A stretch of 17,770 nt of DNA from Candidatus Sulfobium sp. (lineage in GTDB: Bacteria; Nitrospirota; Thermodesulfovibrionia; Thermodesulfovibrionales; UBA6898). Below the pieces are notes generated by a model. That model was not told the origin of the DNA and searched no databases. It saw only the letters and a list, made by a program, of their open reading frames with translations. The translations under genes were made by a program, and so were the position numbers. Each line of letters begins with the position of its first letter. The first letter of the stretch is position 1. The DNA is taken from contig JARRRI010000067.1 in the NCBI GenBank assembly GCA_037380845.1, positions 1 through 17,770 on the forward strand. Reading direction: 5' to 3'. Positions 8,281 through 13,480 of the stretch are shown here, in pieces.

Positions 8281-8403
8281 AATAGCGCCCTCAGTTCTCC
8301 AGGGAGAGGTCCCGGTTCTTCTTTTTCAGCAGTTTCCGGATCGTCACCAGGTGTCATGTTCCACGTCGACCGACAAGGGCTCGACCGGGTCTCCCACGAT
8401 CTT
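8281..8403 (-). pseudogene. Decayed second copy of the 3' part of the larC-like gene
   Basis: 8290-8403 aligns with 10016-10131 in the same orientation, with 7 substitutions and 2 single-base deletions by manual alignment. Confidence 0.9.
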
Positions 8404-9957: not shown

Positions 9958-10464
9958 CTAGATGTCCAGCTGTATCGTCTTCTTCGGTTCCCTCAGCCTG
10001 GACTCAATCGCGGCTCTCAGTTCTCCCAGGGAGAGGTCCCGGTTCTTCCTTTTCAGCAGTTTCTGGATCGTAACCAGGGTGTCATGCTCCACGTCGATCG
10101 ACAATGGCTCGGCCGGGTCTCCCACGATCTTCACATCGCACGTGATCGTCTGCCTCCTCCCGTTCACCGCAACGACCAAGTCCCGCCGCTCGTAAGCGAC
10201 CTGCTGAAAGAGATGAAGGGTATCGATCCGGTGGTACCCGGATACCTTCAACTCCCGGGCGAGAAACAGGGCGATGGCCTCTTCGTGCCCGTCGTCGGTG
10301 TCGATGATGAAGACGCTCCCCGGCCGGTTCTTCTTCGTTATGCTCGATATCAGCTGCACATTGCGCGCGCCCAGCTCCATTATCCGCCCCACTGCAAAGC
10401 CGGTCACCTCGGCGGAAACGTGGTCGACCTGGGCAAATAGCAGACGCGCCTTCTTCTTTTTCAT
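9958..10464 (-). CDS. Stand-alone LarC C-terminal-like (DUF111, nickel-insertion family) protein
   Basis: AQVDHVSAEVTGFAVGRIMELGARNVQLISSITKKNRPG resembles the LarC C-domain pattern (ExNxDDxxxExxGxxxxxLxxxGAxDV...MKKNRPG). 168 aa, no His-rich segment. TGATG overlap with the upstream stop. Confidence 0.75.
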   Translation of the reverse strand: MKKKKARLLFAQVDHVSAEVTGFAVGRIMELGARNVQLISSITKKNRPGSVFIIDTDDGHEEAIALFLARELKVSGYHRIDTLHLFQQVAYERRDLVVAVNGRRQTITCDVKIVGDPAEPLSIDVEHDTLVTIQKLLKRKNRDLSLGELRAAIESRLREPKKTIQLDI

Positions 10465-12233
10465 CAGAACTTCAGTCCCTTCATGATATCGGCAGCCAGG
10501 CGCGTGGCGTGCTTGAGACTCGGGGCAGGAAGCGCCAGCAGTACGTCCGCGGCGGTCATCGCCTCCTTCGCCGCCTCGTCGGGGTCCATCCCCATGGCCG
10601 CTGCCATGCAGGCGCAGACCGTGACATCAAGGCAGGAGGCCCCTGAACAGAGCATCTCGATGACGGCCGGCGAGACTGCCGAGATGGCGTCTATGGTGGC
10701 CTGGTCGGCCTTCATCAGTGCCTCGGGTGCCGCCTTAGCCAGGACGTTGTCCAGACGATGGACCGTGCCGTCGATCTTCACCTCGACATCCACGTACGCG
10801 TCAAAGGCGAAGTGACGCTGGGCGAACACATGGGACCTCCGCCCCGACCCCGGTCGAACTTCCCTGAACCGGATGTACTCGATGTCGCGGCCGAGCCTCT
10901 TGCCCATCGCCTTTGCAACCGACTTCTCGAGTGACGCTATCATCCTGTCCTGTGCTTCGCGGATGACCTCGTGCAGTGTCTTACCCTGCTTCATATCGTT
11001 GTAATCGTGCAGTGCCCGGACGGCAACAGCGTTTGTAAACCCCGGCTCGGTGGCCGCAAGGATCATGTCGGTAATGGGTCCCCGTTCGACCGTATCAGCC
11101 TTTCGCGCCAGCACGTTCGTGGCCGTGATGGCCTGGTCCCGCTGGAAATGCATATCCATGGTCTTGTTGATCACGGAAATTATCTCCTCCCGTGATGACC
11201 CCTTGCCCATGAGATAGAGCGCCAGGGTGGGTGTCGTGACCCAGTGGTGGAGCGGGATCACGAGCGGTCCGCCCGACCGTCCCGCCCCGATCGCCGAACC
11301 TTCCTGGATAATCGAGCAGAGCTCGGCGAACATGATCATGCCGACGACGGTGGGTGTGCCGGAATCCTTGAGGATAATAGCCAGATCACCCACTACCCGC
11401 GCAGTGTTCAGCTCCTCGCCCGTGCCGCGGATATGTATAACAGCCGGAAGTCCGGCCTCCTCGACCGCCGCTTTCGCAACGGTCTCCGGCGTCCTGGTCA
11501 CCATAAAGCTGCCGTACTCCTCCCCCACGTAGGCATCGGGATGGATGATCTCAAGCGCCGCCGTGGTCCCGAACAGGGCCGAGAACCAGCGGTTAGGCTT
11601 CATGCCTGCGGAGCCGTACGCCTTGACCATGGCCTTCGTGCCGATGCGGCTGAGCTTCTGGCCGAGCTTGGGGAAGAGATGGTCCTCGCCGATGGCGGAG
11701 TGCCCGATGATCGGGCCTCCTGCGCCAAGCGGCAGAAACTGCGAATCGTACGGGGCGAGGTGCTCGCTCTCCAGGGCCTGGTAAATGGCCAGCGTCGCCG
11801 CGAACCCCGATATCTTGTTGTTCTGCTTCTCGGTGGGAATGGAGGAGACCCGGCCCGAGGGAATGCCGGCCGCCATGCGCGTCACGGCGCCGAGCTTGCG
11901 GTTCGGGCAGGGCATGCCGCACTGCACATTCACGCCGGCCCAGTACAGGAGGACTGCGGCGCAGAGCGCGGCGTTCGCAGGATCGGCCCCGCACTTCATC
12001 AGTTTCCCGACCGCTTTCTTCGCGATGTCGTCTACGTCCGTGTGGATCACGTCGGAAGGCTCCAGCTTCATCTTCCTGCCCCTGTGCATCTCCCGGGCGA
12101 TGACGTTCGAAGCGGCCCAGACGCCAATATTGAAGGCGCCCCATCCGCCGAGGCCGGCTTCGAGTTTGTCTACGGTCAGGTAATCGGGCCGCGCGGTCGC
12201 GGCCCTGAAAACAGCGATGATCTCCCGTTCCAT
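10464..12233 (-). CDS. Uncharacterised ~589-aa soluble protein
   Basis: Long Ala/Gly-rich ORF; AAGGAG SD before ATG 12233 (the track start at 12341 overlaps the upstream gene). Conserved-looking blocks GADPANAAL, NRKLGAVTRMAAG, NNKISGFAA, GHSAIGED, EIIHPDA. No family I can name. Confidence 0.88.
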   Translation of the reverse strand: MEREIIAVFRAATARPDYLTVDKLEAGLGGWGAFNIGVWAASNVIAREMHRGRKMKLEPSDVIHTDVDDIAKKAVGKLMKCGADPANAALCAAVLLYWAGVNVQCGMPCPNRKLGAVTRMAAGIPSGRVSSIPTEKQNNKISGFAATLAIYQALESEHLAPYDSQFLPLGAGGPIIGHSAIGEDHLFPKLGQKLSRIGTKAMVKAYGSAGMKPNRWFSALFGTTAALEIIHPDAYVGEEYGSFMVTRTPETVAKAAVEEAGLPAVIHIRGTGEELNTARVVGDLAIILKDSGTPTVVGMIMFAELCSIIQEGSAIGAGRSGGPLVIPLHHWVTTPTLALYLMGKGSSREEIISVINKTMDMHFQRDQAITATNVLARKADTVERGPITDMILAATEPGFTNAVAVRALHDYNDMKQGKTLHEVIREAQDRMIASLEKSVAKAMGKRLGRDIEYIRFREVRPGSGRRSHVFAQRHFAFDAYVDVEVKIDGTVHRLDNVLAKAAPEALMKADQATIDAISAVSPAVIEMLCSGASCLDVTVCACMAAAMGMDPDEAAKEAMTAADVLLALPAPSLKHATRLAADIMKGLKF

Positions 12234-12267
12234 GATCTTTCTCCTTCTATGGGTTTCCGGTCCCGGC

Positions 12268-13299
12268 TCAGGCGGCCCATTCCCGCGCCACCCGTATGAA
12301 GGCCCGGATATTCTCATGGGGCACACCAGGGGGGATGTCACAGCCCGGCATCAGGATGAACCCTCCATCAGTGCCGACATTCCCGATCACCTTCCGGCAG
12401 GCGTTCTCGACATCCTGCACCGTGCCCTGCAGCAGGACCTTCACCGGGTCCACATTTCCGGCAAAGCACATGGTGCCGTGCAGGATCTCCTTTGCCCTGG
12501 CCATGTCAGTCTTGTGATCGAGGCTGACGCAGTGCGCCCCGGTCCGTGGATAGAGATCGAGGCGGTCCGTGGTGTTGCCGCAAATATGCAGTATGGTCCG
12601 CGCTCCCCTGTCTGCCGCCCAGTTGATGAAGGCCTGCAGGGGCGGCAGCACGTACTGTTCGAACTGCTTCCTCGACATCAGGTCTCCGGAGGCCGTAGGC
12701 TCGCCCAAAAGGACCAGGTCGAGAGGGCCGGGCGGCAGGAGCGGTTCGTACAGGAGTTTCAGCATGTCGACCGCGAACTCTGTCGCCGCCTTCACCAGGC
12801 CCGGGGTTTTGTAGAGCGCCTTCATCATCGCTTCTTCGCCGATCAGCCGCGCCCCCAGGGTAAACGGCCCCCATGCCGTGAGCGTCACCGCATATTCCCG
12901 GCCGAGCGCCTTGTCGACAAGGCCGTAGGCGTCGCGGATGACGGACAGCACGGGATCGCTGCTGATGCGCGAAAGGTCGAGCCCCGCCAGGTCGGACTCC
13001 GCATGCACCAGGGGAGCTTCAAGGTCAGGCGTACCCACCTCGCGGTACTTGATTGTGCCGCCTAGCGCCGCAACAGGAAAATTGGGATATCCGGAGCCTA
13101 CGTAGACGATGTCGCTCTGAAGCTTGCCGGCCATCTCCGTGATCATCCGGGCCATGAGCGAGGGATTAGTGGACATCTGTTGAAAGGAAACGCCGTACTC
13201 GCGCACGCTCCACGTGCCGGCGCCGATCAGCGCCGCCGGGATCCGGTCCGGCGTTTCCCGGTTCAGGGCCCTGCCTATCACTTCGCGGGATGTTTCCAC
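12268..13299 (-). CDS. Uroporphyrinogen decarboxylase-fold methyltransferase (MtaA/CmuA, MT2-type)
   Basis: AGGAGGT SD before GTG 13299. GPFTLGARLIG, EPTASGDLMS, Zn-ligand motif ILHICG, FAGNVDP, GFILMPGCDIP. Lacks the HemE RQAGR motif. Confidence 0.9.
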   Translation of the reverse strand: METSREVIGRALNRETPDRIPAALIGAGTWSVREYGVSFQQMSTNPSLMARMITEMAGKLQSDIVYVGSGYPNFPVAALGGTIKYREVGTPDLEAPLVHAESDLAGLDLSRISSDPVLSVIRDAYGLVDKALGREYAVTLTAWGPFTLGARLIGEEAMMKALYKTPGLVKAATEFAVDMLKLLYEPLLPPGPLDLVLLGEPTASGDLMSRKQFEQYVLPPLQAFINWAADRGARTILHICGNTTDRLDLYPRTGAHCVSLDHKTDMARAKEILHGTMCFAGNVDPVKVLLQGTVQDVENACRKVIGNVGTDGGFILMPGCDIPPGVPHENIRAFIRVAREWAA

Positions 13300-13341
13300 T
13301 GGTGCGCACCTCCTGAAGGTCGCGGACCGACCTGTTTCAAT

Positions 13342-13350
13342 ATTGTACCA
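13342..13350 (-). promoter_or_regulatory. Extended -10 element for the methyltransferase operon
   Basis: Minus strand TGGTACAAT (TGn-TAcAAT) ~43 nt upstream of the GTG start; no convincing -35. Confidence 0.4.
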
Positions 13351-13480
13351 CGGGGAGCGAGGGAGTCCTTGCAGAATTATTTCCGGCATTCACACCTGCT
13401 GACCGGCGGGCGCGGCCGTATCAGGTGAAAGGACAACGAATCACCTGAATGACTTGCGGGAATATTCCCGGCGGCGGGCA

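Follow-up and report, generated by a model that had tools for sequence, protein, structure and literature searches.

To our knowledge, the known protein folds that use the nickel-pincer nucleotide (NPN), a cofactor produced by LarB, LarE and LarC, are few. The papers cited in this paragraph describe several such systems. LarA has a fold described as a unique alpha/beta fold, and NphT, an NPN enzyme that is not a LarA and has an aldo-keto reductase (AKR) fold, was found through LarC neighbourhoods without LarA and shown to bind the cofactor covalently; an ornithine cyclodeaminase uses a dinucleotide form of the cofactor (PMC13524815). On the side of synthesis, the LarC2 part of LarC binds cytidine triphosphate (CTP), and CMPylation of the precursor by this part is proposed to precede nickel insertion in LarC1 (PMC13510736), and approximately 15% of genomes carry larBCE without larA (PMC11796402). 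Here we describe a three-gene cassette on contig JARRRI010000067.1 of Candidatus Sulfobium sp. (the window, that is, the whole stretch of DNA analysed, 17,770 nucleotides (nt)), in which the gene of an uncharacterised 589-amino-acid (589-aa) protein stands between the genes of a stand-alone LarC2-like protein and of a methyltransferase of the URO-D family. We regard it as a putative cofactor system of the lar type, with a candidate client family that has no precedent and with an additional LarC2 paralog. We tentatively favour the reading that the 589-aa proteins are clients of the NPN pathway, not described before, in one-carbon (C1) metabolism and that the LarC2 paralog is its dedicated loader or activator, a close call that falls slightly on the doubtful side.

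The window is a complete contig (C67) of a 3.18-Mb genome in 104 contigs that is 100% complete by marker genes. The sequence, checked against its open reading frames, places the cassette at 9958-13299 as three co-oriented genes on the minus strand, with the following features:

12268-13299, minus strand: gene of a URO-D family, MtaA/CmuA-like Zn methyltransferase (343 aa, GTG start)
12234-12267, minus strand: intergenic spacer of 34 nt with the Shine-Dalgarno sequence GAAGGAG (12241-12247), read from the sequence
10464-12233, minus strand: gene of the 589-aa protein, an uncharacterised family and candidate nickel-pincer-cofactor client
9958-10464, minus strand: gene of a diverged LarC2-type (LarC C-terminal domain) paralog (168 aa)
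13309-13350, minus strand: AGGAGG (13309-13314) and an extended -10-like TGGTACAAT (13342-13350), read from the sequence

GAAGGAG ends seven bases 5' of the ATG of the 589 gene (12233). The stop codon of this gene and the start codon of the LarC2-like gene share one base, within TGATG at 10462-10466, and the two genes are translationally coupled in the window. Upstream of the cassette, AGGAGG lies 9 nt before the GTG of the URO-D gene and TGGTACAAT 43 nt upstream of it; we prefer this GTG to the ATG at 13389 because the homologues of the URO-D gene product are 342-344 aa long. A preliminary description of this DNA, made from the letters alone, had reported three tightly linked minus-strand genes with a 34-nt gap, a TGATG overlap and a Shine-Dalgarno sequence, all of which we found as described, and the profile matches, coordinates and spacing also bear out its gene identities and operon structure. 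It had further given the cassette an extended -10 element of its own. The motif is indeed present, but a generic sigma-70 consensus promoter scan did not list TGGTACAAT among its sites, and we treat it as a motif match only.

In connection with nickel insertion, the 168-aa protein matches PF01969 (Ni_insertion) with 45.5 bits (cut-off 22.1, E 7.5e-12), at profile positions 242-363 only. It thus covers the C-terminal third of the profile, and the LarC1 domain with its histidine-rich nickel site is not present. Against the LarC2 model NF052512 it scores 40.4 bits, under the cut-off of 50; the LarC2-like proteins as a group reach 40-53 bits with this model, as compared with 134 bits for the true LarC C-domain of the host. 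Several positions are nevertheless common to the 168-aa protein and this host domain, namely D14, G22, G32-A33, K44-K45, R47-P48-G49, E71 and G76. The best sequence match in the PDB is 3c19 (E 7.5e-4, residues 9-127), which is MK0293 of Methanopyrus kandleri, likewise a stand-alone LarC2-like domain of similar size, with weak sequence similarity; the accessible parts of the papers that name MK0293 do not describe its function. Compared with LarC, the CTP-dependent cyclometallase made up of LarC1 and LarC2, the 168-aa protein shares the LarC2 part of PF01969 and several motif positions, and differs by its lower score, its lack of LarC1 and its coexistence with a full-length LarC in the genome and, at some loci, directly beside it. 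At one such locus (L060), the LarC beside the pair is of full length (456 aa, PF01969 positions 2-361). Because a full-length LarC adjoins it in loci of this type, the LarC2-like protein is, on the evidence of these gene strings, an extra paralog and not merely the split half of a LarC. The preliminary description had called it a stand-alone LarC C-domain, which is right as to the LarC2-type match but too simple as to its origin, given the full-length LarC next to it at several loci.

No Pfam or NCBIfam family matched the 589-aa protein at E <= 0.1. Among the profiles without a match in these scans are Lar_N (PF09861) and aldo-keto reductase in Pfam, and those of the MT1 families (MtaB, MttB and relatives) in Pfam and NCBIfam. 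A profile of the family returned a chance-level match only from the PDB sequences (E 0.73), and a protein atlas searched with the 589-aa protein gave no usable match. The concern that it might belong to a characterised family, whose pathway would explain the trio, thus found no support. The family itself is large. A word-indexed search yielded 237 homologues; among the 120 matches listed, identities are 53-95%, every name given is hypothetical, and the sources, by name, are Nitrospirota, Nitrospinota, Desulfobacterota and Firmicutes. When 1.84 billion representatives were searched exhaustively, 112 matches were obtained, of which approximately 16 are full-length clusters at 31-56% identity, with no link to another family among them. 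When a member of the distant clade described below was used as query, 868 proteins were retrieved at E <= 1e-20, with names pointing to Chloroflexota, Thermoleophilia and Desulfoscipio; the sets of 237 and 868 may overlap.

The alignment of both clades contains near-invariant polar residues at N111, R112, K113, R119, K136, N139, H178, E183, D184 and E228 in the first half of the set, followed by H231, D233, H267, K289, D290, E311, R406, R465 and D478, and no cysteine that is conserved across the two. Such a set of lysine, histidine, arginine, aspartate and glutamate residues would fit a nucleotide cofactor that is tethered or coordinated, without being specific to one. The AlphaFold2 model of the protein (pLDDT 83.3, pTM 0.87) is nearly all alpha-helical, and a separate model of residues 1-330 has a pLDDT of 85.4. 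Fold searches covered both models. Foldseek against the PDB gave a best E of 0.019, at a TM of approximately 0.1, for the whole model and of 0.04 for the N-terminal 330 residues, and the best VIA-align Z scores, 6.4 and 5.0, respectively, are under the level that the tool regards as meaningful for helical proteins. The same range of helical-protein noise holds the methyl-coenzyme M reductase alpha subunit (Z 5.7 over 113 residues; Z 4.0 with the N-terminal part), and we took the likeness to McrA/McrB as a whole (Z 5.7, 4.4, 4.0 and 3.2) as noise. A complex prediction for the 589-aa and LarC2-like proteins scored 0.00 in two runs, made without controls. At two loci frame changes interrupt the gene of the 589 family (L023:6001-7777 and L024:6001-7765), which could reflect either decay or an error of assembly; at L024 it is broken into several pieces, and the same genome has a split LarC that contains a stop codon.

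The 589-aa protein therefore differs from LarA in that it has no Lar_N match and a model predicted to be nearly all alpha-helical. It resembles NphT in being a non-LarA protein proposed from its adjacency to lar genes where LarA is missing from the genome or cluster, but differs from it in having neither an AKR or other Pfam match nor a fold match, and in that its cofactor binding is a proposal. The survey in which NphT appears profiled Pfam co-occurrence (PMC13524815), and the 589-aa family could escape neighbourhood pipelines that count Pfam domains because no Pfam model exists for it. Within the full-text literature searched, most subscription journals lying outside it, we found no paper describing the 589-aa family and none in which lar genes are connected to genes of URO-D/MtaA, corrinoid or methanopterin systems, and likewise no characterised pathway for the trio, in line with what the preliminary description had supposed; one such search yielded work on LarA, Lar biosynthesis and NphT only.

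We then turned to gene neighbourhoods, mapping marker proteins by tblastn on 104 loci (23 from species genomes, 80 from metagenomes and the window), which form 62 clusters when their 589-family proteins are grouped at 90% identity, 21 of them in the window's clade and 41 in a distant clade. All neighbour counts are lower bounds that depend on flank length, many of the loci being short. A LarC2-like gene neighbours the 589 gene at 89 of the 104 loci and in 53 of the 62 clusters (19/21 in the window's clade and 34/41 in the distant clade). The URO-D gene is a neighbour at 32 loci and in 18 clusters, 15 of the 21 in the window's clade and three of the 41 in the distant one. The conserved core consists of the 589-aa protein and the LarC2-like protein, and the MtaA-like methyltransferase is a clade-specific third partner. 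The trio recurs in other genomes, which answers the reservation that its genes might not be syntenic elsewhere. LarB, LarE or LarC1/LarC genes are found beside the pair at 28 of the 104 loci and in 15 of the 62 clusters (2/21 and 13/41 for the two clades). When only loci with at least 3 kilobases (kb) on both sides are counted, a lar gene is present at 7 of 14 representatives of the distant clade and at none of 12 in the window's clade, the L017-type cluster being represented in this count by a locus without lar genes. The lar genes are arranged around the pair in at least four gene orders, which differ between distant lineages:

LarE-LarB-589'-UROD-589-LarC2like-LarC1: L016 (lar bit scores 316, 298 and 191, above the curated cut-offs)
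589-DUF2267-LarC2like-LarE-LarB-CooS: L017-L022 and L043
589-LarC2like-LarC-LarE-LarB: L054, L058-L061 and L068
LarB-LarC1-589-LarC2like: L082, L092, L098 and L100

In these strings, as in 15 of the 62 clusters overall, the 589 gene stands with LarB, LarE and LarC1/LarC where a client would be expected by comparison with the lar operons that contain LarA. The differences from such operons are the extra LarC2 paralog and, for the window's clade, lar genes that mostly lie elsewhere in the genome. One of the two ideas offered in the preliminary description, a 589-aa metalloenzyme that the coupled LarC-like domain would mature, gains real support from the pair's adjacency at 89 of the 104 loci and from the lar genes that flank it.

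The URO-D gene of the cassette would point towards C1 metabolism. The 343-aa protein matches Pfam URO-D (PF01208) over residues 4-341 with 184.8 bits (cut-off 23.9, E 3e-54), and is by its profile scores closest to MtaA/CmuA, though under every curated cut-off: 157.9 bits against 235.4 for TIGR01463 (mtaA_cmuA), 120 against 400 for MtaA (NF040654) and 115.5 against 600 for MtbA (NF041608). It aligns with the MtaA structure 4ay7 (E 1.8e-22), and the LHICGN and PGC strings of the latter, which we take to be its zinc ligands, are matched, so that the H-x-C...C zinc-ligand motif, which the preliminary description gives for MtaA/CmuA proteins, is present. The methylcobamide:thiol methyltransferases MtaA, MtbA and CmuA have the URO-D fold family in common with it, and LHICGN and PGC are common to it and MtaA 4ay7; a further likeness to their systems is that a corrinoid protein, RACo and DUF1638 occur in related 589-family loci. 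The difference is that the window itself codes for neither a corrinoid protein nor an activase, and within the reach of our literature searches we found no described system of the MtaA, MtbA or CmuA type with a 589-aa or LarC2-like partner.

CooS-type proteins and DUF1638 proteins are each encoded in 7 of the 21 clusters of the window's clade. The full corrinoid set (URO-D, B12-binding protein, RACo and DUF1638) is present in one of these clusters (L005-L007 and L041), where URO-D, the corrinoid protein, RACo, DUF1638 and a second URO-D lie immediately 5' of the pair. In a subclade of the distant clade, LarB-LarC1-589-LarC2like is embedded among C1 genes of another kind, coding for beta-RFAP synthase (214 bits, as compared with a cut-off of 113.5), an archaeoflavoprotein AfpA-type protein, an Mpt_N (MtdB-like) protein, an ATP-grasp protein, FwdD, FwdB (547 bits) and FwdA (721 bits). 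The pair thus lies beside C1-carrier enzymes in two independent clades. The loci with the pair inside this tetrahydromethanopterin (H4MPT)/methanofuran C1 cluster are L104, L092, L082, L100, L099, L073, L091, L110 and L090, and the proteins close to this subclade come, by name, from Chloroflexota and Thermoleophilia.

As to the host, the window codes for no corrinoid protein, RACo, LarB, LarE or LarC1 among its scanned proteins. The preliminary description was thus correct that these partners are absent from the window, but they are encoded elsewhere in the genome. LarC is found on C23 (TIGR00299, 188.7 bits), LarB on C9 (267.1 bits) and LarE on C32 (302.1 bits), all above their curated cut-offs and scattered rather than clustered, and no LarA was found in the genome. 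At least four corrinoid-protein genes and at least five RACo-like genes lie outside the window, the corrinoid and activase contigs being C41, C14 and C22. Contig C41 carries RACo, a corrinoid protein, URO-D, a URO-D/CobW fusion and DUF1638; near this corrinoid set (L030, C41:8000-26000) are the 487-aa URO-D/CobW fusion, a CbbQ/NorQ-type AAA protein and an 898-aa protein without a Pfam match. Contig C14 (L031, C14:2000-13000) carries methylenetetrahydrofolate reductase (MTHFR), two URO-D genes, a corrinoid protein and RACo, and a URO-D protein encoded there is the closest paralog, within this genome, of the URO-D protein of the trio (48% identity). Of the 22 other carrier genomes, 20 have LarB over the cut-off, 19 have LarE, 19 have LarC in full or split form, and only 5 have LarA. 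In L017-type carriers LarB and LarE each occur in a further copy elsewhere in the genome, and because of these the Lar copy in their cluster looks dedicated.

Taken with the conserved pair and its lar linkage, the reading we favour would work as follows. The 589-family enzyme would take up the cofactor made by LarB, LarE and LarC, or a nucleotidylated form of it, and the LarC2 paralog would load or activate the enzyme, a role modelled on that of LarC2, a CTP-binding domain proposed to CMPylate the precursor of the cofactor. For the window's clade, the MtaA-like Zn methyltransferase would feed a methyl group to the substrate or remove one from it, which would place the chemistry in C1 metabolism. 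A more detailed version, which we consider unlikely as it stands, is that the 589-aa family is a further, structurally unprecedented NPN scaffold that catalyses hydride transfer on a methyl- or methylene-level C1 unit, with its obligate LarC2 paralog supplying the cytidylylated (dinucleotide) form of the cofactor or loading it. Oxidation would in this way be linked to methyl transfer by corrinoids or to C1 units bound to H4MPT.

Several observations weigh against an NPN client. In the window's clade, just 2 of the 21 clusters have lar genes flanking the pair, and the window itself has none there. Of 201 genomes in a sample of the phylum, 144 have LarB over its cut-off, as compared with two, one of them the host, that have the 589 family; within this sample the family was not found in the two other genomes of the host's family, and both retain LarB. 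Because LarB is this common in the phylum, the Lar genes of the lineage evidently need no 589 family to account for them, and co-occurrence of the two is a weak argument. One carrier (G002, which is G149, with locus L003; 89% complete) has no detectable LarB, LarE or full-length LarC, though it also lacks the weak PurE-type match that every other carrier gives, and the sequence may be missing; among the remaining carriers, no LarB over the cut-off was found in G003, no LarE in G008 and G014, and no full LarC in G005 and G015. Moreover, the nickel-pincer role that we propose for the 589-aa protein draws on sequence and gene neighbourhood rather than on biochemistry, and the same is true of cofactor binding, the part given to the LarC2 paralog and any reaction suggested here.

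Of the alternatives, the one that survives best, although we think it rather unlikely, is that the 589-aa and LarC2-like proteins are factors of maturation or biosynthesis, be it a variant nickel insertase in which the 589-aa protein works with LarC1 or in its place, a cofactor modifier, or a maturation system for another nickel enzyme such as carbon monoxide dehydrogenase (CODH). That the pair is kept together at so many loci (89 of 104) would fit this, as would the position of the 589 gene between LarC1 and LarC2like at some of them, and CooS-type genes adjoin the 589 family at 12 of the 104 loci, in 7 of the 21 clusters of the window's clade. In the distant clade, however, CooS adjoins the pair in none of the 41 clusters, and in L060-type loci no LarC function is missing since the full-length LarC of 456 aa lies next to the pair. 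In these strings the 589 gene also occupies the place that LarA has in the classical lar operons, and a protein of 589 aa that is so highly conserved (53-95% identity across phyla among the matches listed) would seem more like an enzyme than a chaperone.

A second alternative, which we find improbable, is that the pair has a function unrelated to nickel and to methyl transfer, for example as a nucleotide-dependent enzyme with the LarC2-fold subunit only as its CTP- or NTP-binding module, and has its present neighbours through shared regulation in anaerobes. Consistent with this, 47 of the 62 clusters have no lar gene in the fetched flanks, the carrier G002 has no detectable Lar genes, and the LarC2-like protein scores under the LarC2 cut-off. 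Chance or co-regulation would, however, be a poor explanation for lar genes in at least four gene orders in distant lineages, and the positions from D14 to G76 listed above are shared with true LarC2. The least probable of the three, and the other idea of the preliminary description, is that the 589-aa protein is an MT1, a substrate-specific methyltransferase that loads a corrinoid protein, with the MtaA-like protein as MT2 and a LarC2-like protein whose role is unrelated to nickel: the URO-D gene at 32 of the 104 loci, the full corrinoid set directly before the pair in L005-L007 and L041 and the host's corrinoid-protein and RACo-like genes would favour it, but it has become weaker, as those corrinoid loci already possess two URO-D-type methyltransferases, in the distant clade URO-D is confined to 3 of the 41 clusters and the fetched flanks hold neither a corrinoid protein nor RACo, the protein has no Pfam match, MT1 families included, a nearly all alpha-helical model and no family-wide conserved cysteine for a zinc site, and the recurrent lar genes would be left unexplained.

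Some features of the related loci deserve mention in their own right. The Thermodesulfovibrionales locus L016 has two 589-family paralogs, 39% identical to each other (L016:2913-4679 and L016:6001-7770), with URO-D between them, and its genome holds a further copy on another contig (L011). A CooS/prismane-family protein is encoded directly upstream of URO-D at L003 (L003:224-2170), L004, L024, L033, L036, L039 and L042, and the protein of these loci shares only 24-28% identity with the CooS found in loci of the L017 type. In L017-L023 and L043 a DUF2267 protein gene separates the 589 gene from that of the LarC2-like protein, and the pair is preceded, instead of by URO-D, by a conserved set made up of a GntR/UTRA regulator and two to three small PNPOx-like proteins, together with a 233-aa protein that by eye has several long hydrophobic stretches. 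L006 and L007 have identical protein matches and coordinates although one is binned as a Nitrospina metagenome-assembled genome (MAG) and the other as a Desulfobacteraceae MAG, so at least one of the two assignments is doubtful.

Lastly, we considered the origin of the cassette. The preliminary description had noted that the trio is visibly richer in guanine and cytosine (GC) than the genes beside it, and indeed its GC content is 0.624, compared with 0.508 for the rest of the window and 0.534 for the genome (mean 0.535 and standard deviation 0.023 in windows of 3342 nt). Only one of the 2879 genome windows of this size reaches 0.624, and this is the trio itself, the richest stretch of the genome. 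The cassettes of L002, L003, L013 and L015 are likewise GC-richer than their own flanks. The nearest relative of the 589-aa protein in a named genome, at 90% identity, is found in a Candidatus Sulfobium MAG (L002), where the same trio has different surrounding genes than in the window, and an 89%-identical protein is present in a genome from another family of the phylum. In addition, the window contains a remnant approximately 1.6 kb downstream of the cassette:

8290-8402, minus strand: LarC2-like gene, decayed copy of its 3' part (tblastn pieces, 80-88% identity)

The alignment of this copy at the DNA level spans approximately 113 nt with approximately 90% identity and two single-base deletions, and it may be the scar of an insertion or rearrangement. 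The GC excess, the different neighbourhood in L002, the 89%-identical protein in another family and the decayed copy together point to a cassette gained horizontally. Occurrence in the phylum is sporadic, as seen from the two carriers among the 201 genomes sampled.

In summary, the 589-aa proteins form a large, unnamed family that extends over Nitrospirota, Nitrospinota, Desulfobacterota, Chloroflexota, Thermoleophilia and Firmicutes. Because it has a LarC2 paralog of its own and repeatedly takes a place inside strings of lar genes, this family is a concrete and testable candidate for a missing user of the nickel-pincer cofactor in anaerobes. If that is true, nickel-pincer chemistry would be placed in C1 metabolism.

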